From positions 40,932 through 104,931 of the IMG/VR virus record IMGVR_UViG_3300021400_000113: DNA of 64,000 nt; one strand, 5' to 3'. Position numbers and translations under genes: made by a program. This DNA comes from a virus (lineage: Duplodnaviria; Heunggongvirae; Uroviricota; Caudoviricetes). A model generated the notes under the pieces. It was given only the letters and a program-made list of their open reading frames with translations, had not been told where the DNA came from and ran no database searches. Below, piece after piece: positions 27,842 through 51,952 of this stretch (within the stretch, counting starts at the first letter, position 1; each line of letters starts with the position of its first letter).

Positions 27842-28106
27842 AATTTCTTGGTATAACTTTACACATCCAAATCAGGACGCTATTAAAAAAAGGGACAAAT
27901 TTTTAGAAGAGCCAGTTAAGAGTTGTATCAATTGTACGCATTTTTATTTTAATAATGATGGAAGTGCAGGTTGCGATGCCCCTTATGAATATACTTGTTT
28001 AAAACTAAAACATAAATTCTTTGAATTAATTGCTCAAAAAACCAGTGAAGAATATTTAAAAACAGTAGAAGAAGAAATTCAACATTACGGAGAATTAGAA
28101 AAATGA
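27834..28106 (+). CDS. Cys-rich hypothetical protein
   Basis: RBS ggagg then ATG at 27834. Carries a CINCTHF...GCDAPYEYTC motif. Confidence 0.4.
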   Translation: MTEISWYNFTHPNQDAIKKRDKFLEEPVKSCINCTHFYFNNDGSAGCDAPYEYTCLKLKHKFFELIAQKTSEEYLKTVEEEIQHYGELEK

Positions 28107-28564
28107 AAATGATTCATGGATTTGATAATAAATACTCCTTTCTAAGCAACTTTTATGCTTGCCAGGTAGAATATGAAGGAATCATATATCCTACTTCTGA
28201 ACATGCTTTTCAAGCCGCAAAATCTCTCGACCCAGATGTACGCAAATGGGTCGCGGCCGCGCCTACTCCTGGGCAAGCTAAACGACGCGGGCACACGATT
28301 GAATTGCGGCCCGATTGGGAAGAAGTAAAAGACAAAGTTATGCTTGATATTGTGCGTGAAAAATTCAGAAATGAAGATATGCGCGCCCGTTTAATTGCTA
28401 CAATTAATGAAGGATATAGCGGTTTCTGTGAAGATAATTATTGGCATGACAATTATTGGGGTAATTGTAATTGTTCTAAATGCGCAAACATTGAGGGTAA
28501 AAATATGTTAGGTAAAGTTTTAATGGAAGTCGCGCGCGAAGTTATTAGTGAAATTATTAATTGA
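28103..28564 (+). CDS. NADAR-domain protein (YbiA/DUF1768 family)
   Basis: FLSNFYACQVEYEGIIYPTSEHAFQAAK matches the N-terminal NADAR signature. Confidence 0.6.
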   Translation: MKMIHGFDNKYSFLSNFYACQVEYEGIIYPTSEHAFQAAKSLDPDVRKWVAAAPTPGQAKRRGHTIELRPDWEEVKDKVMLDIVREKFRNEDMRARLIATINEGYSGFCEDNYWHDNYWGNCNCSKCANIEGKNMLGKVLMEVAREVISEIIN

Positions 28565-30048: not shown

Positions 30049-31131
30049 ATGGAAGTTAAAGTTGTAATTGGAGCTAACTACGGCGATGAAGGAAAAGGTT
30101 TGGTTTCTGGTAATCTGGCAAGAGAAGCGCAAAAAGAACAGAAAAAAACACTAACAGTATTTTATAATGGAACTGCGCAACGCGCCCATAGTTTTGGTAA
30201 TACTGTACAGCATTGGCTCGCTGCGGGAGAAATTTTTGGTAGCGATACCTTTTATCATTCAATGTTTGTAGTTGATCCAATTACACTTTGGCTTTCTAAT
30301 TCTCCTGTTTATATTGATCCACGGTGTCGTGTTATTCTTCCATGTGATGTATTTTCTAATCGTAAATTAGAAACTAGTCGTGGAGATAAACGACATGGCT
30401 CTTGTGGATTTGGACTTTTTGCCGCGGTTCAACGTAGTAAATATCCTGAATATTGTATAACTGTTAATGACTTTCAAGATCCATATAATTTATATTTTAA
30501 ATTAAAAGAAATTAATGAAAAACATTATCCCATGAATTTTGATGATATATATAATATAGATAATTTTATGAAAGCCGTTGCCCACATCACAAGCAAATGT
30601 AAAATTATTACTTTTGAAGATTTAATTCAAGAAAAAAATTATGATACTATTATCTATGAAGGCGGGCAAGGTTTGCTTCTTGATCAGACTAATATGGATT
30701 GCTTTCCGCACTTAACTCCTTCTAGTGTTGGCATGTATAATATTGCTAATGATATTAAAAGCTTAAATTGTTCAGTAGATTTATTTTATGTATCTCGTAC
30801 ATATATGACTCGTCACGGAGCTGGACCCATGGAAAGTGAATGTTTAAAACGGCATATTAATCCAAATATTGTAGACCTTGTAAATCAACCTAATAAATGG
30901 CAAGGAGAATTGCGGTTTGGACATATTAATTTAGATACTCTATATGCTCGTATTAAAAAAGATGCTAATATCTATTCAGACAATGCCAATATCAATTTAG
31001 TATTTACACAATTAAATTATACAAACAATAAAATTGATACAATTGAAGGTAAAAAAGAAATTGTAAAGCCCGGCTTTTGTTCTAAACTCTATGTTTCAGA
31101 TAATAAACTATATATTGAAAGGAAGGAATAA
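30049..31131 (+). CDS. adenylosuccinate synthetase (PurA)-like enzyme, short form (PurZ candidate)
   Basis: N-terminal VVIGANYGDEGKG matches the PurA GDEGKGK P-loop. At 360 aa it is shorter than bacterial PurA. Confidence 0.6.
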   Translation: MEVKVVIGANYGDEGKGLVSGNLAREAQKEQKKTLTVFYNGTAQRAHSFGNTVQHWLAAGEIFGSDTFYHSMFVVDPITLWLSNSPVYIDPRCRVILPCDVFSNRKLETSRGDKRHGSCGFGLFAAVQRSKYPEYCITVNDFQDPYNLYFKLKEINEKHYPMNFDDIYNIDNFMKAVAHITSKCKIITFEDLIQEKNYDTIIYEGGQGLLLDQTNMDCFPHLTPSSVGMYNIANDIKSLNCSVDLFYVSRTYMTRHGAGPMESECLKRHINPNIVDLVNQPNKWQGELRFGHINLDTLYARIKKDANIYSDNANINLVFTQLNYTNNKIDTIEGKKEIVKPGFCSKLYVSDNKLYIERKE

Positions 31132-31137: not shown

Positions 31138-31530
31138 ATGGCTAAATATCTAATTGTTGCATATGACTCTATGTATAGTGGATTACATGGTATGGTAGAT
31201 TGGGCTTGTATTGAGGGAGATTATGAAGAAGCCTGTGAATTAGGACATGAGATGGGCTACTCTGTAATTGAATCTTATGGTACTATTATGGATTCTCTGC
31301 ACGAAGAAGCAGAAGAGATATATCGTGAAGAACTTGATGATTCTACTAAAGAACTAAATGAAGAAGATATGGATAGAGTTGATAATATTCTTGATGAATT
31401 AATTGAAGAAGATATTGAATTTTCTATCTATACATTGAAAAATGATACTCCAATTTATGAACTAAATCAAAATTCTACTATTGATTGGGAAACAATTGTT
31501 GAAGAATATCAAAAGGAGGACAATGAATAA
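31138..31530 (+). CDS. acidic hypothetical protein
   Basis: ORF of 130 aa, very Glu/Asp-rich. Confidence 0.45.
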   Translation: MAKYLIVAYDSMYSGLHGMVDWACIEGDYEEACELGHEMGYSVIESYGTIMDSLHEEAEEIYREELDDSTKELNEEDMDRVDNILDELIEEDIEFSIYTLKNDTPIYELNQNSTIDWETIVEEYQKEDNE

Positions 31531-32477
31531 TGATTCTATTTATTTTAGCTATTGTCGCGCTTATTGTGGGCTTAATTCTTGCTATTGTATCAGATGAATA
31601 TAAAGGGTTATGCGCCGCTATTGGTGTCATTTGCTCCGTTGTATTAATAATTCTTGCTAGTGTATCATATGTGCCTACTGGACACACTGGTATTGTAACA
31701 ACCTTTGGTAAAGTACATGATGAAACCCTTGAAGCTGGTCTGGCTTGGCACGCCCCATGGGATAATGTAATTAAAATGGATAATCGAGAACAGCGTGTTG
31801 CTTTTAATCTACAAGCTTTCTCCAAAGATATTCAACAAGTAGACATTCAAGGTTCCATTAATATTAATATTAATAAATCAACTGCAATGATTTTATATCG
31901 CGAAGTTGGTACAGATTATGTTAATATTTTTGTAACTCCTCGTATTCAAGAAGATGTAAAAATTGTAATTGCGGGTTATACCGCGGAAAATCTAATTAGT
32001 AATCGACAAGCCGCCTCTGATGCCATTTATGAATTAATTAAAGACGAGCTAACAGAAAAGGGAATTAATGTAATTTCTCTTGCGCTTGAAAATGTAGATT
32101 TTACCGATGCTTTTGAAGCTGCGGTTGAGGCTAAGCAAGTGGCTACTCAGGAAAAACAGCGCGCTCAAACAGAACAAGAACGTATGACTATGGAAGAAGA
32201 AGCAAAGGCCAAACGGTCTGTGATTGTGGCAAATGCCGAAGCAGAAAAAGCTAAGATTGCCGCTCAAGCAGACTTAGAAGTTGTAAAGATTCAGGCCGAA
32301 GCGGCTCTATATGCAGGTGAAAAAGAAGCAGAAATGAATAAACGTATTTCGGAAGCCTTAACCAATGAACTAATTCAATACTATTGGATTAAACAATGGA
32401 ATGGCAAACTGCCTACTGTAACTACTGACACTTCTATGCCTATCTTTGATATGGGAGGACTAAATTATGACGAATGA
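31530..32477 (+). CDS. SPFH/band-7 (prohibitin/stomatin-like) membrane protein
   Basis: N-terminal TM segment, then an SPFH-like core (VPTGHTGIVTTFGKV...) and an Ala/Glu/Lys-rich coiled coil. Confidence 0.6.
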   Translation: MILFILAIVALIVGLILAIVSDEYKGLCAAIGVICSVVLIILASVSYVPTGHTGIVTTFGKVHDETLEAGLAWHAPWDNVIKMDNREQRVAFNLQAFSKDIQQVDIQGSINININKSTAMILYREVGTDYVNIFVTPRIQEDVKIVIAGYTAENLISNRQAASDAIYELIKDELTEKGINVISLALENVDFTDAFEAAVEAKQVATQEKQRAQTEQERMTMEEEAKAKRSVIVANAEAEKAKIAAQADLEVVKIQAEAALYAGEKEAEMNKRISEALTNELIQYYWIKQWNGKLPTVTTDTSMPIFDMGGLNYDE

Positions 32478-33600: not shown

Positions 33601-33909
33601 ATGATAATGCGGGAAGAAATACTTGAATTTATTTATCGTCGATTTAATAATGACTGTCATTGGACAGACGGTAATTGTTATTACTTCGCAGTCATTTTAA
33701 AAGCTCGTTTTCCCAAAGGTGAAATTTGGTATGACGCAGTTGATGATCATTTCATATGTAAAATAGAAGATTTATTTTATGATTGGAATGGAACCTGTAC
33801 ACAATATCAAATTGATGAGCGATTATTAAAACATGTTTATAAATGGGATGATTACAGAAAAATTGATCCTATACATTATGAAAGAATAGTTAAAGATGTA
33901 ATAAGGTAA
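33601..33909 (+). CDS. hypothetical protein
   Basis: ORF of 102 aa followed by a terminator hairpin. Confidence 0.45.
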   Translation: MIMREEILEFIYRRFNNDCHWTDGNCYYFAVILKARFPKGEIWYDAVDDHFICKIEDLFYDWNGTCTQYQIDERLLKHVYKWDDYRKIDPIHYERIVKDVIR

Positions 33910-33932
33910 GCAAAAGCTTACCTTATTTTTTT
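33904..33932 (+). terminator. rho-independent terminator
   Basis: Hairpin aaggtaagcaaaagcttacctt followed by a T-run. Confidence 0.5.
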
Positions 33933-33947
33933 ATTGGTGGTGATAGA

Positions 33948-36821
33948 ATGGCAATAAAAAGTAAACCTCATAAATCCCCAAATTTAAATTGGCATAATAT
34001 GGGCAATTTAATTTTTTATAATGGACTAGAACCTTTTAATTTTTATTTTGATCTATTGTTAGAGGACTATGAAAAGCGTCCTCCTGAATATAATAGCTTT
34101 GCTAACGCTATTGGAGAAGCCGCGAAAAGTAAATTTAATTCAACTATAAACTCATTAAAAAATAATAAAGACGACGAAGGAATGACAAAATTAGAATCAA
34201 TACCCGCTTATTTAGAAAAAGCTATTTAGAAAGAATCAAATAATGAATTAGCTTTTTTTAAACAAAAATATGAATGGTTTAAATCAAATTTTTCTGAAGA
34301 AGAATTAAATAATTTACCAGAATTAAAATTTTTATTCGATTTTTTTTCCAATCCAACCACTCAAAGTGGAACTATTGATTATCCTCGCTTTTTAGCCGCA
34401 ATAAATATATTAATACAAGGATATGATAATGCAAAAGAAATAGTAAAATATGAGCGAAAGCGTCTAGAAGATTTAGAAAAACGATTCGCAGAAGCGAGAA
34501 AGGCCGCGGGAAGACGTGCAGTCGGATTAGCGAAAAAAAAATATGGATATGACGATATTGAAAAATAGGAATAGTGGCGAGAAACCGCAAAAATGAAAAA
34601 TCGTCGAAAAGTAGAAATTCATTATTTAAAAAATAAAAATTTCAATGATGAAAAAAAAATAAAAGGCTTAGGGTTAAAAACACGACTAGAAGGATTAGCG
34701 AAAACTGCCGATGTTGAAGTCGCAGATTGGATTACTAAAACATTATAGAATATGTTAGAATAGCCAGCAATACGTAATAAAATAGAAACATTAATTATTA
34801 AAAATAAAAACTTAGTATTTACAAATCCATAGCAATTAGCGCAAAAAGTCAAAAGCTCTTTAGTACAAAATATAACTAGTTATGGCGTTAAAAATATAGG
34901 AAAAATATTATCAAATCAAATTACTACAAAAAATCTCGATGAAATTATTTCAGAAGTTGAAAAAGATTTTACATATGATTATGAAATAGAAGGATTTTAC
35001 GAAAATTTTGGATAGTATGGTATTGAATTGGATTTTTTTAGAAATCCTAATAACTTAAATAAAGATGGCACTAAATCCGCGGAAAGACTATATGAAGCAT
35101 TAAAGCGCCTACAACATTTGCTTTCTTTATCACGACAAAAAAATAGTAGAATAAAACTTACCGACGAACAAAAATTTGTTGCTTCTGTTTTTTTTAAAGA
35201 TGAAGGAATTATTAATATAATGAGCATGATTTCTACTATTGAAAAATAGATGAAAGAAGTAGAGAAGGCAATTGAAGAAGTAAAAAAAACAGGACAGGCG
35301 CGAGATAAAACCTTAAGACTTACATATAAAGAATATATTCCCAATCAGCTCAGAGGTGAAAAAAATGATGGTAAAATTAAACTTCATATTGACGCAAATG
35401 GGAATATAGATTTAACCTCTCTTAATAGAATATATGGTAAATATACTAAAGAATTAGGATTTGGCTCTGACCGCATAAGAGCAAATACTTTATAGGGATT
35501 AGTATCAGGATTAAAATCTCGTCTAAGTTAGAAAATGCGAAATCAATTAGAAGATTTAATTTCTGGAAATACAAAAATTAAACGCAATAAAAAATTTTCT
35601 ACTTAGTCACAAATTAATCAAGCATTATAGGAAGGACTTGAAGGAATAACCGTATTTATAAGCGCCCCAGATCTCTCAGAAATTGCGCAAGGACTTCAGT
35701 TTCATATGGATGGAGATAACGTTTCTTTAATATGGACAGGACCACATAAAACAAAAAATGACTTCGTTACTATTACTATTAATACCCCAATAGCAGAAAT
35801 AAAAACAGAAGTTTCTTCTATATTAAATACTGATATTGAAAATCTTGGAGAAGATATAGAACAATTAATTTAGAATAGCAGAAAAGAAACTGCGAAACTT
35901 TTAGGAGAAGGACTAGCACACTATTCAACTAGCTTATCAGATAAAAAACAATATAATAAACAAAATGAAATTATGAAAGAATATGAAAATTCATAGAAAG
36001 AATACTTTGAACTATCTGAAAAAAATAATGAATTATTAGAAAATATGCCAAATCTTAAAGAATTATTAGAACGTGTAGAACGCACAAATAAAGGGCAATC
36101 CCCAGAACAAATTTCCGCGAAGAAAAAACAACTTCTTACAATGTTAACAGATTTCTTTTACGAATCTTCTACAATGAAAACCTTTAATCATTATGTTAAT
36201 GATGTTGGATTTGTAGGAGGAGGAATAGGAGGAGACGTCATAGCCCAAATGAATAAAATTGAAGAAATGTTTTTAAATGCAGGAATTTAGCTTGGAACTG
36301 ATAAAGATTGGTTAATAGGAGCTATTATTAACTGTTCTTCTCATAGTGTTATAGGAACTGAATATTAGAGTACTATTGAGCAATATTTAGGAGCTATAGC
36401 GGTTTTTGCAATGTTTGATGAAGGAGCCGTCGAATAGAGTGTAATAAATAATACCGCCAATATAAAAGGTAATACTAAATTTTTACATTTATACAGATTA
36501 AACGGAGGATATTATTTAGGTTCATATGTACTAACAAGAGTATTAGAATAGTTTAATGAATATATTTCTAAAATAGAAGAAGTTTCTACTAAATATTCTA
36601 ACATACACGGAGGAATTGCTATTCTAGGAGGTGGAATGACTCCACAAGATATACCAAATAGAGGACTTTATTCTTCAGAACCACAAAATCGTTCTCCTTG
36701 GCAAACTGTATCTGCTACTGCAAAAGGACGCGCATCAATATAGGTAGTATTTTTAGCAGGATTATTACAGACATTAAATTAGATTGAGGCCGCATTAAAT
36801 AATATTGAATATCCCGCCTAA
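33948..36821 (+). CDS. large (~958 codon) protein with ~21 in-frame TAGs; possible tape-measure or internal virion protein
   Basis: ORFs 33948-34229, 35028-35249, 35250-35495 and 36045-36290 all lie in frame 0. The frame is unbroken by TAA or TGA until TAA at 36819-36821. Gly-rich GFVGGGIGGDV segment and coiled-coil-like regions. Confidence 0.45.
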
Positions 36822-38471: not shown

Positions 38472-38686
38472 TTGAAATTTTTCCCAATATACCACAAGAA
38501 GTAAGAAATTCCGCCGCAATGATGTTTGATTTAGCTTCAATGCAACACAATCCTCTTAAAATGGTACAAATGTTAAATGAATATACCAATACTTGTGAAA
38601 ACGAAGAGGAAATAGAATTCCTTCGTTTTTATTTCAATTTAAGAATGGAGCAGATGAAAAATGAAAGTGATAATGATAAGCGGTAA
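38468..38686 (+). CDS. hypothetical protein
   Basis: ORF of 72 aa. Confidence 0.4.
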   Translation: MIEIFPNIPQEVRNSAAMMFDLASMQHNPLKMVQMLNEYTNTCENEEEIEFLRFYFNLRMEQMKNESDNDKR

Positions 38687-39227
38687 AAGCGGACATGGTA
38701 AAGATGCTTTTTCTAATGCTTTTGAACAATACGGAAAAGAAAAAGGAAATAAAATTATTGTAATTCATTTCGCTGATTTAGTTAAATATTATGCTAAACA
38801 ATATTATAATTGGAACGGCGAAAAGGATAATGATGGACGCCATTTGCTTCAATATATCGGAACCACATTAATGCGCGGGTATCGTTCTGAATATTGGGCA
38901 CAGATTGTAGCCGAATTTCTCGCTGCCGCAAGTAAAGATTTTGATATTGCCTTAATTCCAGATTGGCGTTTTGCGAATGAATTTTACACTGTATCAGAAT
39001 ACAATCCTGAAACTTATACAATTCGTGTTGAAAGACATGATGAAGAAGGAAACTTATACAAAAATCCTAATATGACAGAAGAACAATTAAATCATATAAG
39101 TGAAACTGAATTGGATCATTTTCCTTTTGACTGGAAAGTTATTAATCAAGATACTTTGGAATTTTTAGAAGGCTCAGCCCAAACATTATTTGATGTAATT
39201 ATAAATGGAGAAGATACAAATGATTGA
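38661..39227 (+). CDS. deoxynucleoside monophosphate kinase-like P-loop protein
   Basis: MKVIMISGKSGHGKD N-terminus resembles T4 Dnk (LSGVKRSGKD). Confidence 0.55.
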   Translation: MKVIMISGKSGHGKDAFSNAFEQYGKEKGNKIIVIHFADLVKYYAKQYYNWNGEKDNDGRHLLQYIGTTLMRGYRSEYWAQIVAEFLAAASKDFDIALIPDWRFANEFYTVSEYNPETYTIRVERHDEEGNLYKNPNMTEEQLNHISETELDHFPFDWKVINQDTLEFLEGSAQTLFDVIINGEDTND

Positions 39228-40338
39228 TTATTTTACTAGCGAGCCAATGAAATATTGGTCTATGCCTTCTACAATGTCTTCTTCTGCCCGTAGATTAAAA
39301 TTAGAACAAATGGCAGAAAGTGGAGAATATTTATTCGGACTAAAAACTGATGGCAATTGGTCTCGCGCCATTATCACTAATGAACGTTGCGCCTTACAGA
39401 CCCGCGGAATTTCTAAAACAACTGGAACCTATGGTGAAATTCAAGAAAAAGTTTTATTTTGGAATGAAGTATGTAAAGCCTTTCCTTATGGTACAACTGT
39501 TATACTTGGAGAAATATACCGCGAAGGCGATATTGACAAAGATATTGGCTCTGTCCTAAGATGCTTACCTCCTAAGGCATTAGCGCGACAAAAAGATAAT
39601 CCACTAAGATGGAGAATTTTTGATGTTCTTTGTATTGATGGAAAAGATTTAATGAATATTCCATTTGAAGAACGCATTGGATATATTCCAGAAGTTGTTT
39701 CTCGTATTCATTCCAATTTAGTAGAAGGGGTATCCTATTTTCCTATGGATGAAAATTTCTTTGAAAATATGGGTACAATATTCGCAAACGGCGGTGAGGG
39801 TGCGGTATGCTACAAGCGTAGTGCTTTATATGAACCTGGCAAACGCGGTCCTCATTCTTGGGATAGCGTTAAAGTAAAACAAGAAATTTCCTCTGACATA
39901 GACTGCTTTATTATTTCTACCGTACCCTGTGAAAGAAATTACTATGGTATGGATGTTCCACACTGGCAATTTTGGGAAAATGTAAGAACTGGCGAAAAAT
40001 TATATGGTAATTATTTTGGAGAGTATCAACAAGGTAAAACTTTAATTCCGGTTACAAAAAATTATTATTATAATTGGCCAGCAAGTATTATGGTTGGGGT
40101 ATATAATAATGAAGGTGAAATTGTTGAACTATGTAAGGTGGCGGGCTTAACTGAAGATTTTAAGACTGAGTTACGCGACCATTTTGAGGAATGGTATATG
40201 TGCCCTGTAAGTATTAACGGCATGATGGTCTCTACCGCGCGCGAAAATATTTCTATTCGTCATCCAGTTTTAAAATCAATTAGAAAAGAAGATATAGATG
40301 TACATGATTGTACTCTTGAAAAGATAATGGGAGCATAA
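39205..40338 (+). CDS. ATP-dependent DNA ligase-like protein
   Basis: GLKTDGNWSRAI is a KxDG motif I. Confidence 0.5.
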   Translation: MEKIQMIDYFTSEPMKYWSMPSTMSSSARRLKLEQMAESGEYLFGLKTDGNWSRAIITNERCALQTRGISKTTGTYGEIQEKVLFWNEVCKAFPYGTTVILGEIYREGDIDKDIGSVLRCLPPKALARQKDNPLRWRIFDVLCIDGKDLMNIPFEERIGYIPEVVSRIHSNLVEGVSYFPMDENFFENMGTIFANGGEGAVCYKRSALYEPGKRGPHSWDSVKVKQEISSDIDCFIISTVPCERNYYGMDVPHWQFWENVRTGEKLYGNYFGEYQQGKTLIPVTKNYYYNWPASIMVGVYNNEGEIVELCKVAGLTEDFKTELRDHFEEWYMCPVSINGMMVSTARENISIRHPVLKSIRKEDIDVHDCTLEKIMGA

Positions 40339-40356
40339 GCTCCCACTTTTCTTTTT
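40329..40356 (+). terminator. rho-independent terminator
   Basis: Hairpin gggagcataagctccc followed by a T-rich run. Confidence 0.5.
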
Positions 40357-40368: not shown

Positions 40369-40397
40369 TTGACAATAATTTAAATTTATGATATAAT
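40369..40397 (+). promoter_or_regulatory. conserved phage promoter copy (TTGACA)
   Basis: ttgaca at 40369-40374 and tgatataat at 40389-40397. Confidence 0.5.
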
Positions 40398-40722: not shown

Positions 40723-40737
40723 TTTTGGAGGTGTAAA

Positions 40738-41607
40738 ATGGATAAATCCCCATTTAATTATGTTGGTAATAAATTTAAATAGTTACCGCAACTATTTTAG
40801 ATTTTCCCTACAGATATAAATAATTTTGTAGATTTATTTACAGGAGGAGCAGACGTAGCTACTAATATGATTTCACACGCTAATATCATATATGCTAATG
40901 ATATAAATAAATTTACAATAGATATAATGAAAGTTTTTTAGGAGAAATCAATTAATGAAATATTAAGGTTTATAGATAATCGTATAGCAGAATTTCAATT
41001 AAGTAAAACCAATAAAGAAGGATATTTAAAATATAGAGAATTATATAATAATGGAACTTATTCAACTCCATTAGATTTATTTACTTTAACACGATTTAGC
41101 TTTAATAATAATTTACGTTTTAATAATAATTGTTAGATGAACCAAGCCTTTGGAGCTAATCGTTCTTCATTTAATCCAGCTATGAGAAAAAATACAATTA
41201 AATTTCATAAAAATATTCAATCAATTATTTTATCATGTCAAAGTTTTGAACTATTTTCAATAAATAATTTAAATTCAAAAGATTTTATATATGTAGATCC
41301 TCCTTATTTAATTTCAGACGCTTATTATAACGTCGGCGCGAAAAATGCTGAATTAAGATGGGAACAAAAAGATGATTTAAAATTATTTGATTTTTTAAAT
41401 AAAATCAATGACAAACAAATTCCTTTTGCTATGTCAAACTTTATTCATCATAAAGGAAAAACAAATGAAAAGCTTATAGAATGGATAAATGATATGAAAT
41501 TGAATACTTATGATATTAATTCTGATTATTCTCATTGCATAGCAAATATAAATAAAAATGATAATCCTACACTTGAAGTAGTAGTGACTAATTATAAAAA
41601 GGAGTAA
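40738..41607 (+). CDS. Dam-like N6-adenine DNA methyltransferase with four in-frame TAGs
   Basis: ATG at 40738 is in frame with ORF 41137-41607. N-terminus FNYVGNKFK-[TAG]-LPQLF...FVDLFTGGADVA is a Dam SAM-binding motif. DPPY catalytic motif at YVDPPYLISD. Confidence 0.65.
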
Positions 41608-41613
41608 AATTAT

Positions 41614-41802
41614 ATGAATAAACAAAAATATGATAAGGCACAAGTATGGGAAGATATAATAACAGAATATTTCAATCGTCATCCTGATGCTGGCCTTGCT
41701 TGGTGGCAGCTTCCACTAGAAGAACAGCCCGAAGAATTTAAGGTACATATGTATGATATTATTTGGACATTTTTAAATAATAAGGAGGAAAATAATAAAT
41801 GA
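41614..41802 (+). CDS. hypothetical protein
   Basis: ORF of 62 aa with RBS aaaggag. Confidence 0.4.
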   Translation: MNKQKYDKAQVWEDIITEYFNRHPDAGLAWWQLPLEEQPEEFKVHMYDIIWTFLNNKEENNK

Positions 41803-42353
41803 AAATTTATTTAGCTGGTTCAATTTTTTATTATGGTGATGTACTTCGTAACACAGAATGGGCTAAAAAAATCCGTGAAGCAATTCCAAATGTAGATTTA
41901 TATAGCCCTATTGAAAATACAGCTATAAATGGAACTGAGGGGAAAAAGAAATTTGCGGGCTCACAAGAGATTGCGAATGGAGATAATATTCGTCTAAATA
42001 ATACAGATATTCTTGTGGCTTGTATTGATGGCGATATTCTTCCAGCAGGCACTTGCGCTGAAATTGGGAAATTTCACGAAAAAATTGAACGCGGCGATCA
42101 TAAATATATTGTTGGAATTTGTACTGATAATAGGCAAATGTTCTTAACTCACAGTGAAGCAAAAGATCAAGGCGGTGCGGCGGCACTTGGAGAACAGCAA
42201 TATAGTTATCAAAATTTATATGTTACAGGATTAATTAAACAAGGTGGTATTTTAGTATCAAATATTGATGAGGCTATCGAATTTATTAAAGGTAAAGAAT
42301 ATGAATTTAATACTGAAAACCCATTAACATATTGCGATCCAATAATTTTATAG
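41799..42353 (+). CDS. nucleoside 2-deoxyribosyltransferase-family protein
   Basis: MKIYLAGSIFY N-terminus is typical of the NDT/Rcl fold. RBS aaggagg. Confidence 0.55.
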   Translation: MKIYLAGSIFYYGDVLRNTEWAKKIREAIPNVDLYSPIENTAINGTEGKKKFAGSQEIANGDNIRLNNTDILVACIDGDILPAGTCAEIGKFHEKIERGDHKYIVGICTDNRQMFLTHSEAKDQGGAAALGEQQYSYQNLYVTGLIKQGGILVSNIDEAIEFIKGKEYEFNTENPLTYCDPIIL

Positions 42354-42371
42354 AAAATTTGTTTAAAAACT

Positions 42372-42602
42372 ATGGCAAAAGGAAAACCTATAATTTATTG
42401 TAATCAATTTTTTGCTAATAAACTAATTAATTCAATATTTAAATATACAACAACTAATAAAATAGAAGAAAAAGAAGAAGAAGAAGAAGAATTAGTAGAA
42501 GAAGGATACATAGGAAAATTTAGAGGAACTCCTGTTTATTTAATAAAACATTTTCCACAAGAAACTCCTTATGCTATTGTATTGCCAATGCTAAAGGAAT
42601 AA
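42372..42602 (+). CDS. hypothetical protein
   Basis: ORF of 76 aa with a Glu-rich stretch. Confidence 0.35.
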   Translation: MAKGKPIIYCNQFFANKLINSIFKYTTTNKIEEKEEEEEELVEEGYIGKFRGTPVYLIKHFPQETPYAIVLPMLKE

Positions 42603-42646
42603 TTCATTTGATGAAATTTTACCAATTTTGAAGGAGCAATATAAAA

Positions 42647-43951
42647 ATGAATAATATGTTATATAATATAAATGATAAACCACAAACTCTAAAAGAATGG
42701 ATTGGTTATTCTTTACAAGTTGTCTTATCTTGTATTACCGCAACACTTTTAATTTGTTTGATTGCAGGTACTAATTTAACCGCAGGTATGTGCGCGGCAG
42801 GTATTTCAACGATATTTTTTCTATTTATTACAAGATTTAGAGCCCCTATTGTAATTTCAAATAGCGGGGCAACAGTCTCCGCGGTCATTGGAGCAATTGC
42901 TCTTACAGAACCCATTCAAAAAAATTTTGCTGGGGTAATTTTAGGTGGTATAGTTATTGCCATTATTTACTGTGTCGCGGCATTATTTATTAAACGATTT
43001 GGCGTGGATTGGATAACCAAATTAATTACACCAGTAATGTCAGGAGCAATTATATTAATTATTTCTATTCAATTAGGATTCTTTATTCCTACTTATGCAC
43101 AAATTAATGGTTCTTATTCTTTACTTGGCGTCGGGATAGCATTATTTGATATGCTAATTACTTTACTTTGTGCTTTTTATGGTAAAGGAATTATTAAACG
43201 TTGGCCTATTCTTTTTGGAGTTTTAGGAGGTTATATTTTAAGTTTAATCTTAACATTAACTAATTTTGCTCCATTAGTAGATTTAACACGTTTTCAAAAT
43301 ATGAAATTAATTACCATTCCTGATTTTGCCTTTTTACACGTTTCATTTAAAAATTTTAATTGGAGTGTTTTACCACAGATTATTATTAGTTTTGCATTAG
43401 TTTCCGCTGCGGCATTAGCCGAACATCTTGGGGATATGATAAATGCTTCTAATATTTGTGGAAGAGATTTCCTGAAAGATCCTAGCTTATCTCGAACACT
43501 CTGCGGCGATGGCTTAGGCTCTTTAATTGGAACGATTATTGGTGCTCAACCAAATACGACCTATACAGAAAACCTTTCTGCTATTCTTATTAGTAAATGT
43601 GCTAGCGTATATATTACATTACTCGCGGCAATAGAACTAATTTTATTAGCATTTTTAGGACCTTTTAACGCAGTACTTCAAGCAATGCCTAATGCAGTAT
43701 TTGCGGGTGCTTCTATTTGCTGTTACGGTATGATTGGCGCGAGCGCAATGAAATATTTAAAACAAGCAAATATTAACTTTGAAAATCAAAAAACCATGTG
43801 GATTTTTGCCATTATGTTAATGGTAGGAACCTCTGGTTTAGCAATTTCTACTGGTCGTCTAAACATTAGTGGTATTTGTCTAGCTATTATAGTTGGTATT
43901 ATTTTGAATGTAGTTTTAAAAGATAAATCTACTGATTTAGAAAATAAATAA
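42647..43951 (+). CDS. NCS2-family nucleobase permease (xanthine/uracil permease-like)
   Basis: 434-aa polytopic membrane protein. N-terminal region ...LKEWIGYSLQVVLSC... resembles uracil/xanthine permeases. Confidence 0.55.
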   Translation: MNNMLYNINDKPQTLKEWIGYSLQVVLSCITATLLICLIAGTNLTAGMCAAGISTIFFLFITRFRAPIVISNSGATVSAVIGAIALTEPIQKNFAGVILGGIVIAIIYCVAALFIKRFGVDWITKLITPVMSGAIILIISIQLGFFIPTYAQINGSYSLLGVGIALFDMLITLLCAFYGKGIIKRWPILFGVLGGYILSLILTLTNFAPLVDLTRFQNMKLITIPDFAFLHVSFKNFNWSVLPQIIISFALVSAAALAEHLGDMINASNICGRDFLKDPSLSRTLCGDGLGSLIGTIIGAQPNTTYTENLSAILISKCASVYITLLAAIELILLAFLGPFNAVLQAMPNAVFAGASICCYGMIGASAMKYLKQANINFENQKTMWIFAIMLMVGTSGLAISTGRLNISGICLAIIVGIILNVVLKDKSTDLENK

Positions 43952-43965
43952 AGGAGATTAAAATT

Positions 43966-45276
43966 ATGGAATTTTTAGAAAAACATTTTCACATTAAGGA
44001 ACGCGGTTCAACAGTTTCTCGTGAAATAATGGGTGGTCTTGTTACTTTTATGGCTATGGCATATATAATCTTCGTTAATCCTTCAATTTTAGGAGCGACA
44101 GGAATGGATTATACTGCTCTAACCCTAGCGACTTGTATTAGCGCCGCAATTGGCACTCTATTAACTGCCTTTATGGCTAATGTGCCTTTCGCACAAGCTC
44201 CTGGTCTTGGTATCAATGCTCTATTTACTTATACTTTATGTATGAAGATGGGTTATACTTGGCAGCAATGTTTAGGTATGACTTTCATCAGTGGTTTAAT
44301 TTTTCTAATCATTACTCTTTCTCCACTTCGTAATAAAATTATTGAAGCCATTCCCGCACAGCTAAAGCGCGCGATTAGTGTTGGTATTGGTATGTTTATT
44401 GCTCTTATTGGTCTAATTAATGCTGGCATTGTAACTGCCAATAACAATCTACTTGACTTAGGAACTATTACTAGCGGCGCAGCTCTACTAGCAATTATTG
44501 GCCTTATTATTACTTCTATTCTACTTGTATTTAAAGTTCGTGGAGCAATTCTATATTCAATTATTGCGACAACTATTATTGGTATTCCTCTTGGAGTAAC
44601 AAATTTAAATGTAACCTTTAATTTCCAAAATCTTTCTCTTGCTCCAACCTTATTCAAGCTAACTTTCTCTGGTCTAGCTGCGTTCGGTATCTTTCCTCTA
44701 ATTACATCTATTCTAACTCTTAGTATGTGCGACTGTTTTGATACTGTTGGTACGCTAACTGGTTGCGCAGCAGGTTGTGATATGCTAGATGAAAATGGTG
44801 AAATGAAGAGCAAAGATATGACTAAGGCTCTAACCGCCGACGCTATTGCTACTTGCACTGGTTCTGTATTAGGCACAAGCACAGTTACTACATTCATTGA
44901 GTCTTCTACTGGTGTAGCTGCGGGTGCTCGCACAGGCTTTGCCTCAATAATTACAGGTGTTCTATTCTTACTTGCTTGTTTATTTGCGCCAATCGCAGGT
45001 ATTGTACCTTCCGCCGCAACTGCTCCTGCACTAATTATTGTTGGTATCTTTATGATGAAGAATGTTACTCAAATTGATTGGAGTGATATGGAAATTGCTA
45101 TTCCTGCTTTCTTAACTATCGCAATGATGCCATTTTCATATTCAATTAGTGACGGTATTGGATTTGGTCTAATTTCTTGGACGTTACTAAAAATGGTTCG
45201 TGGTAAGTTTAAAGAAATTCCAGTTCTAATGTATATACTTTCCGCATTATTTATTCTAATGTATATCGTAACATAA
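43966..45276 (+). CDS. NCS2/AzgA-family purine (adenine/guanine/hypoxanthine) permease
   Basis: FHIKERGSTVSREIMGGLVTFMAMAYIIFVNPSILG is the characteristic N-terminus of PbuG/AzgA-type permeases. Confidence 0.65.
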   Translation: MEFLEKHFHIKERGSTVSREIMGGLVTFMAMAYIIFVNPSILGATGMDYTALTLATCISAAIGTLLTAFMANVPFAQAPGLGINALFTYTLCMKMGYTWQQCLGMTFISGLIFLIITLSPLRNKIIEAIPAQLKRAISVGIGMFIALIGLINAGIVTANNNLLDLGTITSGAALLAIIGLIITSILLVFKVRGAILYSIIATTIIGIPLGVTNLNVTFNFQNLSLAPTLFKLTFSGLAAFGIFPLITSILTLSMCDCFDTVGTLTGCAAGCDMLDENGEMKSKDMTKALTADAIATCTGSVLGTSTVTTFIESSTGVAAGARTGFASIITGVLFLLACLFAPIAGIVPSAATAPALIIVGIFMMKNVTQIDWSDMEIAIPAFLTIAMMPFSYSISDGIGFGLISWTLLKMVRGKFKEIPVLMYILSALFILMYIVT

Positions 45277-45307
45277 GGGTTGAAAATTCAACCCTTTTAT
45301 TTTTTTT
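45277..45307 (+). terminator. rho-independent terminator
   Basis: Hairpin gggttgaaaattcaaccc followed by a T-run. Confidence 0.6.
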
Positions 45308-45334
45308 GACTATTTTTAAAAATTATGCTATAAT
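45306..45334 (+). promoter_or_regulatory. conserved phage promoter copy
   Basis: ttgact at 45306-45311 and tgctataat at 45326-45334. Confidence 0.5.
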
Positions 45335-45363
45335 ATAATTAGAAAGGTATAAGGAGAACGAAT

Positions 45364-45531
45364 ATGTCAATATATAGAATTTATACAAAACGAATTGCTT
45401 ATGAATTAAGAAAACAAGGTTTTAAATTTTTAGGAACAGATATAAATGAAAACTTCCCGCAATATTTAGTCTATTTATTTGAAGATACTCCTGAACTTCA
45501 TGCGGCATTAGTAAAACTCACGCATAAGTGA
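45364..45531 (+). CDS. small hypothetical protein (55 aa)
   Basis: RBS aaggag then ATG at 45364. Stop TGA. Confidence 0.35.
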   Translation: MSIYRIYTKRIAYELRKQGFKFLGTDINENFPQYLVYLFEDTPELHAALVKLTHK

Positions 45532-45544
45532 GGAGGTATCTAAT

Positions 45545-45877
45545 ATGGCAAATATTAATAATTCTCCGGCATTATATATTCGCGGGAAAAAGTGGAGAGA
45601 ACCAAACGAACAGCGCATAAGTGTGGCAGATAGATTATTGGTGGCAATAGGTCAAGAAAAGGGACTAACCGCGAATGATAGACTATTACTAATTTTACTT
45701 ATTGGTCAAACCGATGATCCAACCAAACCTTTTCATCCATCAGAGAAGTGGATTCGTGATAGAACTGGTATGTCACATGATACATATATTTCGCGGCGAA
45801 AAGCACTTGCTGAAAAAGGTATTATCAATTTTATAGAATATGATTCTATTACTGTGAATCTTGATTATTTTGAATAA
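45545..45877 (+). CDS. putative replication initiator / DNA-binding protein
   Basis: RBS gaggagg. HTH-like segment. Iteron array lies immediately downstream. Confidence 0.4.
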   Translation: MANINNSPALYIRGKKWREPNEQRISVADRLLVAIGQEKGLTANDRLLLILLIGQTDDPTKPFHPSEKWIRDRTGMSHDTYISRRKALAEKGIINFIEYDSITVNLDYFE

Positions 45878-45879
45878 GT

Positions 45880-46150
45880 CAGAAAATCCTACCTCTCAAG
45901 AGGTAGGATTTTTAGTCTATATTTTAAGTAGGATTTTCCTACCTGATATAGTAGGATTTTCCTACTTACGATATAGTAGGATTTTCCTACCCACGAGAAG
46001 CCTAAAAATCCTACCTATAACATAATATATAACATAATATATAAACATAATATAACATAAAAAATATTTATAGCACCGCCGAAAAATCCTACCTTCCTTC
46101 ATAATTAGCCGCTTCGCACTTCGTGCTTCGCCGCTAATTATGAAGGCGCA
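45880..46150. repeat. origin-like region: iterons, AT-rich direct repeats and a large palindrome
   Basis: Iteron gtaggattttcctac in at least 3 direct copies plus inverted copies (aaaatcctacct). AT-rich aacataatata repeats at 46015-46070. Near-perfect ~22-bp-stem palindrome at 46100-46150. Confidence 0.5.
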
Positions 46151-46159
46151 AGCGAACAT

Positions 46160-46188
46160 TTGACAAAAAGTAAATTTTATGTTATAAT
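46160..46188 (+). promoter_or_regulatory. conserved phage promoter copy (TTGACA)
   Basis: ttgaca at 46160-46165 and gttataat at 46181-46188. Confidence 0.5.
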
Positions 46189-46207
46189 AAAAGAAAAAGG
46201 TGAAAAT

Positions 46208-46612
46208 ATGAAACTAACTTTAAAAGATAGAATTAAATTTCTATTTCGTAAGCGTTATAGTAATAAATGTAAACTAAGTACGCGCGGCAACTATATGGTT
46301 TATTATTTAATTCGTAAATATATTAATGAAGAAAAAATTGATACCATTCAGGCTTATGAAGAACAAGTTGATAACTGCTTGAAAGAAATTAATGAAATGA
46401 AGTTTTTTGAAACAGTAACAAAAGAAAAACCTGAATATCCAGATACTCCTGAAATTCGTAGAGTTTTTGCCGCGACATTAGTTATAAATATAATACTTAA
46501 AACTGCTATTCCAGAGGATAAAGAAAAAATATTATCTTATATTTCTGAAGAAAAATATAAAAAAGATATATTAGAAATTCAACAAAAATCTGACTGGATA
46601 AAATTTATATAA
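46208..46612 (+). CDS. hypothetical protein
   Basis: RBS aaaggtg then ATG at 46208 (MKLTLKDRIKF...). Confidence 0.4.
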   Translation: MKLTLKDRIKFLFRKRYSNKCKLSTRGNYMVYYLIRKYINEEKIDTIQAYEEQVDNCLKEINEMKFFETVTKEKPEYPDTPEIRRVFAATLVINIILKTAIPEDKEKILSYISEEKYKKDILEIQQKSDWIKFI

Positions 46613-46625
46613 GAGGTGATATATT

Positions 46626-46913
46626 ATGAAAACTATTATTCGTGGCCGTGACAGCGGAAAAGCAAAAGAATTATTAGAATATGCTCAACAAAATGATGCT
46701 ATGATTATTACTCAAAATAAAAGAGCATTTAAAGTAAAAGCAGAATCATTAGGATTTAAAGATATTGAAATTATTGATTATGAAGATTTACAATATGATA
46801 ATTATGATGATAATAAACCAGTAGTAATTCACAATGGTGATAAAATGTTATATTGGCTTATTTCTCAAAAATATGGCCTTGAAACTATTGGTTTTACCGC
46901 GACGGAGGTTTAA
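46626..46913 (+). CDS. small P-loop-like protein (paralog of 48061-48354)
   Basis: MKTIIRGRDSGKAKELLEYAQQN parallels MLRIIGTRGSGKTTQLLRYAAEN. Confidence 0.45.
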   Translation: MKTIIRGRDSGKAKELLEYAQQNDAMIITQNKRAFKVKAESLGFKDIEIIDYEDLQYDNYDDNKPVVIHNGDKMLYWLISQKYGLETIGFTATEV

Positions 46914-46915
46914 AT

Positions 46916-47116
46916 ATGTTTGAAGTAGATGAATATGTAAAAATAGATAAACCATTTTTTAAAGATGGAAAAATCAGTATAAACGTAAACACAGATAAAG
47001 AAAAAATTGAAGAAGACGTAGATACATTAAAACATATTCTTTATAAATTATATAAATTATTTGGAAGAAAAATAATTCTTGTTATAGATGAAAATGGAGT
47101 AGAATTATATCAATAA
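46916..47116 (+). CDS. hypothetical protein
   Basis: ORF of 66 aa. Confidence 0.4.
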   Translation: MFEVDEYVKIDKPFFKDGKISINVNTDKEKIEEDVDTLKHILYKLYKLFGRKIILVIDENGVELYQ

Positions 47117-47117
47117 C

Positions 47118-47146
47118 TTGACTTTTTATTAAAGTTAAAATATAAT
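47118..47146 (+). promoter_or_regulatory. conserved phage promoter copy
   Basis: ttgact at 47118-47123 and tataat at 47141-47146. Confidence 0.5.
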
Positions 47147-47177
47147 ATATATAGAAAAAAGAAAGGAAGTAGGAGTT

Positions 47178-47642
47178 ATGAGAATTTATCTTGCTGGTCC
47201 TTGTGATAGTGAAAATCGTTCTATGATGGTAATGGTCGCAAAAGAGCTTCGTAATTATGACAGTGATATTGAAGTTTATTGCCCGTTTGAATTAAAAATT
47301 GAAAATGCCTGGGACTATTCTCAGGAAGATTGGGCACAAATGGTATTTGATAAAGACGTAGAAGCAATTGATAATTGTGACGTTATGTTTATGATTAGTC
47401 TTGGTCGCATTTCTAGCGCGGGAACCAACTGGGAACAGGGCTATGCTTATGCCAAGGGAAAGCAAGTTATTGTATTCCAGATTACAGAAGTTCCTACTTC
47501 CTTGATGACGTATTGCGGATGCAAGTATTTTATTAATACTACAAAAAAAGAACTAATTCATGAGTTATATTGGACTCTTGAAAAGCTATATGACAATACA
47601 CTTTGTTACTATACCGATAAATGTAGGACGGTGCTTACTTAA
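47178..47642 (+). CDS. nucleoside 2-deoxyribosyltransferase-like protein (second copy)
   Basis: MRIYLAGPCDS N-terminus. RBS aaaggaag. Confidence 0.5.
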   Translation: MRIYLAGPCDSENRSMMVMVAKELRNYDSDIEVYCPFELKIENAWDYSQEDWAQMVFDKDVEAIDNCDVMFMISLGRISSAGTNWEQGYAYAKGKQVIVFQITEVPTSLMTYCGCKYFINTTKKELIHELYWTLEKLYDNTLCYYTDKCRTVLT

Positions 47643-47893
47643 TGAAAATTAAATATATATTAACTTATGAATGGGAAGAAGATGAAGCTTCTATTTTAGA
47701 TTACATGGCGAGTAATGAATGTACGTTCGAAGAAGCTATTGAAGAATTAAAAAAATGGAATAAAGAGCAGCTTGCCGATAGGGTGGATACTCGCGCGGCA
47801 AACATTTTAGATAATTATACTTCTACTTTTAATTGTAAAGTAATACAAGAGCAAACAGGAGAAGAAAGTAATGACAGTTCAACAATTAATTAA
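47642..47893 (+). CDS. hypothetical protein
   Basis: ORF of 83 aa. Confidence 0.4.
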   Translation: MKIKYILTYEWEEDEASILDYMASNECTFEEAIEELKKWNKEQLADRVDTRAANILDNYTSTFNCKVIQEQTGEESNDSSTIN

Positions 47894-48056
47894 TGAACTG
47901 CAAAAATATCCAAAAGATATGCCAATTGCAATTTATGATGATATTAATTGGAAAAATAAAGATATACCTGATATAATACAAATACAAAAACGAGTATGGA
48001 CAGATAGTAATTATCCATATGATAAACCTGATTTTTTATATATAAATTTGGAGTGA
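47871..48056 (+). CDS. hypothetical protein
   Basis: ORF of 61 aa. Confidence 0.35.
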   Translation: MTVQQLINELQKYPKDMPIAIYDDINWKNKDIPDIIQIQKRVWTDSNYPYDKPDFLYINLE

Positions 48057-50767: not shown

Positions 50768-50803
50768 TATAATATGGATAAAATTAAACAATTGGGTTAG
50801 GTT

Positions 50804-51952
50804 ATGACACCAATAAATATTGTCAATCATATGATTGACATTCTTTGTTTATCAGAAGAAGAAATAAAAAATAAGTTATTTTTAGATAATAGTTGTGGAA
50901 ATGGAAATTTTATTAAGGTATTAATAGATATAGGAGTACCTCCTACTCATATATATGCTTGTGATATAGATGAAGAAATCAGTCAATTAATTACCACTTT
51001 AATTCCACAAAATAACTTTTATCTAGGATCAGCGTTTAATAAAACTGATTGGTTTAATAAATTTGATTATGTTATAGGAAATCCTCCATATGTACGTATA
51101 CATAATTTAGATATTACTTTAAAAAATTTTTTAAAAACAAATTATAATACTTGTATAGGAATGTTTGATTTATATTATGGATTTTATGAATTAGGATTAA
51201 AATTTTTAAATGATAAAGGTACTTTATTATATATTACTCCTAATAGTTTTATTAAAAATGTTTCTGGGAAAAATTTAAGAGATCTTATAAAAAATAAAAT
51301 TAATCTTTGGTATTTTGAAGATTTTGAGCATCAGAATAATTTTAATAATTACTCAACTTATACATGTATTGTAGGATTAAGTAAAATAAAAAATAAAATT
51401 CCAATTCCTTGGGATACAGTACGTAATAAAATTGGATTAAGTTTTTCTTCTTTACAAAATGGTATTGCAACATTAGCAGATAAAATTTTTATACAAGATG
51501 ATTTTTCTTTTCTTGAACCTAATTTGATTCATCCAATATTAAAAGCCTCCACTGGTGAAAAAAAATATGTAATTGTCCCACCCAAAACAGAAGAAGAATT
51601 AAAAAAATTTCCTAAAACTTATGAATATTTAAATAATAATAAAAATAAGTTACTAGCTCGTGCAATTACGGGAAAGACTCAATGGTTTGAGTTTGGGCGT
51701 TCACAAGGATTAATTAATATGAATAATGAAAAAATTGCAATTCCAACTACTGTTTCATTTGATGAATTAAAAATTTATAGATTACCAAAAGATTATTATG
51801 TATATTCAGGATTATATGCAACAGCAAAAGATTTAGATAAATTAGAAAATGAATTACACAGTGAAAATTTATTAAATTATTTAATAGAAAATGGTAAGCC
51901 GATGCAAGGTAATTATGTACAAATTAGTTCAACTTTATTAAAAAATTATTAA
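50804..51952 (+). CDS. N6-adenine DNA methyltransferase (NPPY gamma-class, Eco57I/TaqI-like)
   Basis: DYVIGNPPYVRIH catalytic motif. FLDNSCGNGNF SAM-binding motif. Confidence 0.6.
   Translation: MTPINIVNHMIDILCLSEEEIKNKLFLDNSCGNGNFIKVLIDIGVPPTHIYACDIDEEISQLITTLIPQNNFYLGSAFNKTDWFNKFDYVIGNPPYVRIHNLDITLKNFLKTNYNTCIGMFDLYYGFYELGLKFLNDKGTLLYITPNSFIKNVSGKNLRDLIKNKINLWYFEDFEHQNNFNNYSTYTCIVGLSKIKNKIPIPWDTVRNKIGLSFSSLQNGIATLADKIFIQDDFSFLEPNLIHPILKASTGEKKYVIVPPKTEEELKKFPKTYEYLNNNKNKLLARAITGKTQWFEFGRSQGLINMNNEKIAIPTTVSFDELKIYRLPKDYYVYSGLYATAKDLDKLENELHSENLLNYLIENGKPMQGNYVQISSTLLKNY

Follow-up and report, generated by a model that had tools for sequence, protein, structure and literature searches.

What use could a large phage have for nucleobase transporters? 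To our knowledge, the auxiliary metabolic genes of phages nearly always encode enzymes, and genes altering host import are uncommon. The question is raised by a 64,000-nucleotide stretch of phage DNA (positions 40,932 to 104,931 of the IMG/VR virus record IMGVR_UViG_3300021400_000113; this whole stretch is termed the window below), in which an initial annotation, made from the letters alone, had proposed two adjacent transporters of about 435 residues at 42647-45276. Two open reading frames (ORFs) encoding 434 and 436 residues lie at exactly these coordinates, and both products, hereafter permease 1 and permease 2, match the Pfam family PF00860 (Xan_ur_permease) far above its cutoff. They are probably functional nucleobase:cation symporters of a large phage that has reassigned the TAG codon, importing bases for nucleotide salvage. 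This reading draws on family membership, fold, binding-site carboxylates, purifying selection, residence in a phage genome, and the linkage of permease 1 to genes resembling nucleoside 2-deoxyribosyltransferases (NDTs).

Two permeases of the NCS2 family

Both ORFs are intact, with no frameshift, internal stop or in-frame TAG, and each ATG is preceded at 8-9 nt by the Shine-Dalgarno sequence AAGGAG. Their matches to UraA (E 8e-45) and to plant AZG1 (E 8e-61), respectively, set them apart from unrelated membrane proteins such as holins or spanins. Permease 1 covers positions 2-384 of the 389 of PF00860 (186.6 bits for a cutoff of 27, E 7.5e-55), and its residues 7-425 align to residues 7-407 of the 429 of Escherichia coli UraA (PDB ID: 3QE7). 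Among NCBIfam models, the uracil permease equivalog NF007995 scores highest, yet short of its cutoff (217.3 bits vs 477); the ncs2 superfamily model TIGR00801 is missed as well (200.5 vs 291.8 bits). Because 217 bits falls so far below the 477-bit equivalog cutoff, permease 1 is classified by these scores as a member of the NAT/COG2233 group and not as a UraA orthologue, and it should not be filed as UraA or PyrP. The proposed "xanthine/uracil-type" label thus appears valid at the family level only.

Members of the NCS2/NAT family with solved structures possess 14 transmembrane (TM) helices arranged as a 7+7 inverted repeat. A multi-helix transporter fold of the UraA type is predicted for permease 1: its AlphaFold2 model (pLDDT 75.8, pTM 0.76) returns UraA structures as the top PDB matches in Foldseek (TM-score 0.80-0.85), followed by UapA and SVCT1. 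The substrate pocket was read from an alignment with UraA, RutG and XanQ. The pair of glutamates that binds uracil and serves proton coupling in UraA (E241 in TM8 and E290 in TM10) is retained and is invariant across all aligned phage homologues, and the equivalents of UraA Y288 and Y342 are kept across the phage family down to 36% identity. The residue following E290, corresponding to N291 at the second position of the NAT motif, varies among the phage homologues (N, Y, S, A or G). The substrate is probably a pyrimidine base; uracil or thymine is favoured because the glutamate at the first motif position is of the pyrimidine type.

Permease 2 matches PF00860 over positions 3-384 of 389 (131.2 bits, cutoff 27, E 5.2e-38). 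Its only PDB matches are plant AZG1 (PDB ID: 8IRL) and AZG2 (E 6e-45), the best-scoring aligned stretches being residues 119-409 against the former and 51-409 against the latter. It is 37-39% identical to E. coli AdeQ/AdeP vs 31% to GhxP/GhxQ. Mutagenesis of AzgA has assigned roles to an asparagine in TM3, an Asp-x-x-Asp motif in TM8 and a glutamate in TM10, and the GINALF (TM3), CDCFDT (TM8) and IESSTG (TM10) segments of permease 2 align with the corresponding motifs of AZG1 and AdeP/AdeQ. By these criteria it classifies as an AzgA-like (COG2252) purine permease. The family assignments of the initial annotation therefore stand, as COG2233/NAT UraA-like and COG2252/AzgA-like; its alternative label "PbuG-type" is less apt, permease 2 being nearer to AdeP/AdeQ. 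The AzgA-like subfamily has been defined together with the substrates of its four E. coli paralogues, adenine for AdeP/AdeQ and guanine/hypoxanthine for GhxP/GhxQ (PMC6308229). Adenine is the best guess for permease 2, given its closeness to AdeP/AdeQ, at an identity too low for specificity to be assigned.

PHROGs already contains both permease families, as PHROG 20031 ("unknown function") and PHROG 27398 ("tail protein"), and both labels need correction. The family labelled "tail protein" (phrog_27398) is that of the AzgA-type NCS2 permeases (E 7e-135 to permease 2), and its label probably derives from Moraxella phage Mcat12, in which this name is given to a permease at the end of the contig. 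A 226-residue ORF on the minus strand within permease 2 (44253-44933) was taken as a shadow ORF.

A large phage with a reassigned TAG codon

The source element is a true phage and a large one (roughly 167-181 kb), with a GC content of 34% and TAG reassigned. Record names point to a ruminant or gut metagenome as its origin. All large ORFs of the window lie on one strand, and the gene set includes gyrB, gyrA, a DnaB-type helicase, a primase, an ATP-dependent DNA ligase, an RNA ligase, an RNase H, a deoxynucleoside monophosphate (dNMP) kinase and a holin. The permeases had been described as sitting among replication genes, and they do: RNase H, the dNMP kinase and DNA ligase are found upstream, and gyrB, gyrA, the DnaB helicase and the primase downstream. 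Immediately beyond the right end of the window are genes for a RecJ-like exonuclease, a DnaE-type polymerase and NrdD, an anaerobic ribonucleotide reductase. Capsid and terminase genes were not seen, as the window stops short of the structural region. With phage genes (replication, holin) on either side, both permeases are candidate auxiliary metabolic genes inside a bona fide phage genome.

Reassignment of TAG is documented in several ways. At least 25 tRNA genes are clustered at 409-12518, one of them with the anticodon CTA; the latter is a class II suppressor, having a long variable arm and an acceptor stem similar to those of serine tRNAs. Two frames are long only if TAG is a sense codon, namely 33894-36821 (975 codons, 20 TAGs) and 16749-19184 (811 codons, 10 TAGs). 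Further TAG-containing frames are found at 40723-41607 and 41799-42602, and public gene calls on the same contig also read through TAG. TAG is absent from the replication genes and from both permease genes, so both permeases can be made before the phage suppressor tRNA acts.

Distribution, origin and selection

The exact permease proteins occur on contigs of up to 166,865 bp in independent ENA, NCBI, JGI and Logan assemblies, and copies of permease 1 with 94-95% identity are found in IMG/VR, on viral genomes of 169 and 181 kb. At least five independent assemblies show this gene arrangement, as do many contigs of 120-186 kb. A nucleotide search with the 7-kb region 41000-48000 returned no match among 50,697 phage records. 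In this same collection, only 39 and 38 records give any match to the two permeases, and most of them look like host contigs labelled as phage, which broadly bears out the statement that such transporters are rare in phages. Matches such as those in the Listeria, Staphylococcus, Salmonella and VT2-Sakai records were discounted, as they come from host contigs or from the flanks of prophages. Phage c-st and its relatives stand out as clear exceptions.

The best 120 clusters matching permease 1 (55-100% identity) are unnamed metagenomic proteins, of which about 18 lie on contigs of 120-180 kb; in an exhaustive search of 1.84 billion representatives, identities fall from 59% to 48-50%, to 40%, and to 37% or less. 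Among 185,579 species-representative genomes, permease 1 matches only two loci, one of them on a 112-kb contig that is binned into an Acutalibacteraceae metagenome-assembled genome (MAG) and is itself syntenic with the phage. By its matches, permease 1 belongs to a divergent, phage-specific lineage found almost only on phage-like contigs.

Permease 2 has a different history. It is 67-69% identical, over its full length, to chromosomal genes of Clostridia MAGs in plainly bacterial surroundings: one has ABC transporters, threonine synthase and a sigma factor as neighbours, another a glycogen operon. The family divides into a group of 71 clusters, with both verified phage copies, and a group of 41 clusters, with all four verified bacterial copies, the identity between the two groups being about 69%. 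Since phage and bacterial clusters split so cleanly, permease 2 appears to stem from a single capture from Clostridia followed by diversification in phages. The bacterial donors are Christensenellales-like and have 54-60% GC vs 34% for the phage. Similarly, the GC content at third codon positions (GC3) is 0.19-0.23 in the permeases (0.23 in permease 2) and 0.22-0.25 in phage core genes vs 0.73-0.88 in the bacterial homologues.

Pairwise dN/dS values of 0.04-0.15 for permease 1 and of 0.14 for permease 2, with a dS of 0.6 even at 96% amino acid identity, indicate that both are under strong purifying selection. Of note, the permease 1 proteins of the window phage and of UViG_3300021399_000003 (locus L007, 10001-11299) share 95-96% of their residues, while neighbouring core genes are only 62-84% identical (RNase H 63%, ligase 62%, gyrB 79%). 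The dS of 0.6 shows strong constraint on permease 1; exchange between phages is also possible.

Contamination by host DNA, a chimeric assembly or decaying passengers would have been natural suspicions, as most NCS2 matches in the phage collection are mislabelled host DNA. They are excluded by the independent assemblies (at least five, including the viral genomes of 169 and 181 kb), the phage-like composition and the dN/dS values, together with the phage genes on both sides, the intact ORFs with their ribosome-binding sites and the invariant substrate-site residues. The related proposals of a role other than transport, such as superinfection exclusion, or of base efflux, face the same selection on substrate-site residues, and this whole set of explanations, for which the PHROGs label "tail protein" might also be quoted, is very improbable.

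The permease operon and its link to NDT genes

The permeases are the last genes of a predicted operon of 4.9 kb, with the order 100-residue ORF, Dam-like methylase, 62-residue ORF, NDT1, permease 1, permease 2, terminator (Table 1). No promoter comparable to that heading the operon was found between it and permease 1. The strong terminator announced for the end of the pair was confirmed: the free energy predicted for the hairpin, -12.1 kcal/mol (z = -3.5), is below that of every one of 200 shuffled sequences. No riboswitch or other RNA element was found near the permeases or upstream of their bacterial homologues.

Table 1. Positions of the permeases, the operon signals and the salvage-related genes in the window.
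Feature	Positions	Strand	Remarks
tRNA, anticodon CTA	6638-6727		class II suppressor, long variable arm; acceptor stem resembles Ser tRNAs
Divergent adenylosuccinate-synthetase-like protein	30049..31131	+	360 aa; PF00709 69.7 bits; purine interconversion context
Deoxynucleoside monophosphate kinase	38661..39227	+	phrog_139 E 3e-28; PF21448 30.6 bits vs 27.1 cutoff; later salvage step
Terminator before the operon promoter	40328-40345
Promoter of the permease operon (predicted)	40369..40397	+	TTGACA-17-TATAAT, extended TG, 12/12 consensus match
NDT1, nucleoside 2-deoxyribosyltransferase-like	41799..42602	+	184 aa in standard code (stop at 42353), 267 aa with TAG read through
Permease 1, NCS2/NAT (COG2233) UraA-like nucleobase:cation symporter	42647..43951	+	434 aa, intact
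Permease 2, NCS2 AzgA-like (COG2252) purine permease	43966..45276	+	436 aa, intact; 14 nt after permease 1
Intrinsic terminator closing the operon	45275..45296	+	9-bp stem, 4-nt loop, T-run; overlaps the permease 2 stop codon
Promoter of the next transcription unit (operon boundary)	45306..45334	+	TTGACT-17-TATAAT, extended TG, 11/12
NDT2, second NDT-like protein	47178..47642	+	1.9 kb downstream

Salvage enzymes had been said to accompany the permeases, and such genes do flank them: two NDT-like proteins, the dNMP kinase and a protein resembling adenylosuccinate synthetase (PurA), with NrdD just past the window. NDT1 matches PF05014 (39.7 bits, cutoff 28.8), phrog_1817 (E 1e-20) and the NDT of PDB ID 7M5H (E 2e-20), the region of the catalytic glutamate (GTxAEIG) being aligned. 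NDT2 matches PF05014 (57.3 bits) and PF15891 (42.6 bits), as well as an N-deoxyribosyltransferase (PDB ID: 6EVS, E 2e-8) with an aligned GTxWExG motif, and it is kept at 60-62% identity in the related loci L007 and L008. The only in-frame TAG of NDT1 is codon 185. A complete NDT domain precedes it, readthrough adds an acidic C-terminal extension of 82 residues, and the public gene call has the full 267 residues. Expression of the suppressor tRNA could thereby set the proportion of two isoforms. The NDT1-type genes of L008 and L016 encode proteins of about 170-172 residues, without this extension.

Comparison of related phage loci shows that the tightest conserved link is that between NDT and permease 1, the slot of the purine permease being swappable. 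An NDT-like gene is found at most two genes away from the UraA-like permease in the window and in L007, L008, L014, L016, L020, L023, L024 and L027. In L008, L016 and L024 it is of the NDT1 type and directly upstream of permease 1. In L007 and L014, the gene directly upstream encodes another protein, weakly resembling PF05014 (24 bits vs the 28.8 cutoff), and in L020 and L023 the gene for this protein is one gene away. Even a representative sharing only 36-37% identity with permease 1 has the order PF05014 gene, small ORF, permease. The second permease is more variable. In L020, four small genes part it from permease 1, and the locus harbors a PRPP-synthetase-like gene. Synteny in related phages, a check suggested with the initial annotation, hence upholds the NDT-permease 1 unit, and the tandem pairing of permeases is found to vary.

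HNH and GIY-YIG homing endonucleases are dotted across the replication region (20885-21475, 61503-62174), and in some relatives such genes directly adjoin permease 1 (L007 11577-12272; L025 250-1104), where they could aid transfer of the module between phages.

Comparison with known systems

Permease 1 shares with the E. coli uracil:H+ symporter UraA (PDB IDs: 3QE7, 5XLS, 8OMZ) and with the uracil/thymine transporter RutG full-length homology, the best structural match and the four pocket residues cited above. Identity is only 27-30%, however, and UraA and RutG are linked to upp or to the rut operon, whereas permease 1 is phage-encoded and linked to NDT. Permease 2 shares with AdeP/AdeQ, Aspergillus nidulans AzgA and AZG1/AZG2 (PDB IDs: 8IRL, 9J12) the motifs APGxGxNAxF (TM3), DxFDT/SxGT (TM8), IESSxG (TM10) and MPFSYSIxxG. 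Unlike these types, it is encoded by a phage and lacks a riboswitch or PurR-type context. The chromosomal NCS2 permeases of Ca. Limiplasma and "Clostridiales bacterium" also reside in a housekeeping context, unlike phage permease 2, and the Limiplasma orthologue is paired with a gene of the adenine phosphoribosyltransferase (PRTase) type (222 bits vs a cutoff of 143). The adeQ-adeD neighbourhood of E. coli is mirrored by the permease and adenine deaminase genes of related phages.

The closest precedent is Clostridium botulinum phage c-st (NC_007581, 186 kb), in which CST091 (uracil permease), CST093 (NDT) and CST095 (thymidine kinase) are clustered upstream of gyrB and gyrA. Phage c-st, which has a Clostridia host, is large like the window phage and also carries a UraA-like permease close to an NDT, a layout that in both would serve import of a base and its subsequent transfer to deoxyribose. 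The two phages are very distant, though (permease 26-27%, gyrB 26% identity), and c-st possesses a single permease, without an AzgA-type partner and with a thymidine kinase. A phage UraA-like permease beside an NDT is therefore not unprecedented, as annotation. No study of the c-st permease and NDT genes was found in the literature beyond this annotation, nor any paper on viral NCS2/nucleobase permeases as auxiliary metabolic genes or on an NDT and permease module. A paper on Bacillus thuringiensis pBtic235 mentions a phage NDT and no nucleobase permease.

Proposed function

From the above we infer inward transport, the substrates, the timing of expression and the coupling to metabolism as follows. 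The host would be a Clostridia-type bacterium of gut or rumen, in which the operon would be driven by its perfect host-type sigma-70 promoter. Inserted in the host membrane, the permeases would let the cell take up more free bases from surroundings in which products of nucleic-acid breakdown abound. The import of a pyrimidine (uracil or thymine) is most likely for permease 1, and that of adenine, possibly also of other salvageable purines, for permease 2. Two routes may then be followed. The phage NDT-like enzymes could place imported bases on deoxyribose by exchange with existing deoxynucleosides, or host PRTases could make ribonucleotides, which NrdD of the phage could reduce. The products would be channelled by the phage dNMP kinase towards the dNTPs required to replicate a genome of about 170 kb and 34% GC. 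Import feeding salvage is supported by the NDT linkage, the adenine deaminase and PRTase neighbours, the dNMP kinase and NrdD.

Several observations weigh against this account. In the pocket of permease 1, all members of the phage family have G for F73 of UraA and D for H245, the latter as in XanQ and UapA, which are xanthine permeases; the G289 position is T in the window protein and one of T, S and G in the family. The NAT signature motif in TM10 is [Q/E/P]-N-x-G-x-x-x-x-T-[R/K/G]; the ENLSAILISK of permease 1 fits it at positions 1, 2 and 10, with Ser in place of both G4 and T9. With a pocket so altered, and a score far below the UraA cutoff, the substrate might be another compound. Nor is the tandem conserved: no second permease lies beside permease 1 in L007, L008 and L014, and a different AzgA-like protein, 37-38% identical to permease 2, occupies the second slot in L016 and L023. 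In these latter two loci, an adenine deaminase gene (TIGR01178, E 8e-128) directly follows the permease pair; as this enzyme would destroy adenine rather than use it for dA, general purine salvage fits better than a need for adenine. The PF05014 family also includes nucleotide N-glycosidases, not only transferases. Finally, the window and the retrieved relative loci yielded no thymidine or deoxynucleoside kinase, so the step from NDT product to dNMP would rely on the host.

If import for salvage holds, the advance is ecological and contextual rather than mechanistic, because the proteins belong to ordinary, well-understood families. With more than 100 clusters of permease 1 at 55% identity or above and 71 clusters of permease 2, the data suggest that an abundant clade of gut and rumen phages of about 170-185 kb keeps nucleobase importers under strong selection, coupled in nearly all cases to a deoxyribosyltransferase. 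This would imply that external free bases limit phage replication in anaerobic, nucleic-acid-rich habitats, and infection may alter nucleobase fluxes in rumen and gut. A bolder proposal, which is rather unlikely, holds that the conserved NDT and permease pair is a self-contained phage "base-swap" pathway, by which chosen bases (thymine/uracil, adenine, conceivably non-canonical ones) are put on host-derived deoxyribose. If true, an AT-rich phage (34% GC) could, with no need for de novo synthesis, remodel the deoxynucleoside pool of a host that differs from it in base composition, or make modified DNA. Phages would then have a way of acquiring nucleotides that has not been described before, shared by TAG-recoded phages of the rumen and c-st.

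Alternative explanations

The permeases may instead be genes of a carried state (lysogenic conversion), chiefly helping the host to scavenge bases while the phage resides in it as a plasmid-like or integrated prophage. Phage c-st, which is maintained as a plasmid prophage, is the only isolated phage with an analogous module, and a host-type consensus promoter, an own terminator and independence of the suppressor tRNA would suit such genes. The surrounding genes, however, serve replication and nucleotide metabolism and all run in one direction, the operon itself is shared with NDT1 and a Dam-like methylase, and no integrase, partition or repressor gene was seen in the 64-kb window or its flanks. 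This explanation, which is compatible with import for salvage, has a small probability.

A second alternative is that NDT and permease 1 are dedicated to one particular base, perhaps a non-canonical one, which the permease would import and NDT would attach to deoxyribose, serving DNA modification or a shift of host-derived deoxynucleoside pools towards A/T. The linkage persists to 36% identity and recurs in c-st, the altered pocket is invariant at the F73 and H245 positions and variable at that of N291, and the phage is far poorer in GC than the nearest bacterial donors of permease 2. Yet both pyrimidine-type NAT carboxylates are intact, no other base-modification genes were recognised, and the genes for a pyrimidine-dimer glycosylase and two N6-adenine methyltransferases point to DNA with ordinary A and T; on balance a dedicated route is quite unlikely.

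The supply of guanine or adenine by permease 2 for a 2-aminoadenine (Z) genome made via PurZ is largely refuted and hardly credible: the PurA-like protein does have phrog_1211, annotated as a PurZ-type synthetase, as its best PHROGs match, but the PurZ model NF038379 reaches 27.9 bits vs a cutoff of 300 and covers the N-terminal 30 residues only, the PDB matches are to ordinary PurA (E 2e-10) and none to PurZ, the P-loop (GDEGKG) is as in PurA, two adenine methyltransferases are encoded, and neither DatZ nor MazZ was recognised. NCBIfam PurA models score higher than that of PurZ, at 58 bits, and still below their cutoffs of 395-445, so that this protein qualifies as neither PurA nor PurZ.

Other features of the window

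The tRNA array harbors additional RNA elements. A full-length ROOL RNA lies within it at 5131-5705 (Rfam RF03087, 323 bits vs a gathering score of 99), a group I intron match at 3854-4038 (RF00028, 58 bits vs 50), and a tRNA-like match of 127 nt, which may hold an intron, at 6504-6630. Weak extra tRNA matches occur at 859-931 and 12296-12354.

A third transporter-like gene at 14626-15189 encodes a short (187 residues) formate/nitrite transporter (FNT; PF01226, 69 bits vs a cutoff of 34.6), and the related locus L014 also carries an FNT gene (2569-3159).

Potential counter-defence genes are also present. A cluster of RNA-repair type comprises a PNK-like AAA_33 kinase (12890-13360), a DUF2828/DUF7788 protein (19282-20790) termed "RNA-binding protein" in PHROGs, an RlaP nucleotidyltransferase (21414-22262) and an RNA ligase (26219-27445); these may counter host defences that cleave tRNAs. 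Anti-defence or DNA-modification roles could be fulfilled by a NADAR-domain protein (28103-28564), an SPFH/Band-7 membrane protein (31530-32477), the Dam-like methylase of the permease operon (40738-41607, with four TAGs) and an Eco57I-type N6-adenine methylase (50774-51952).

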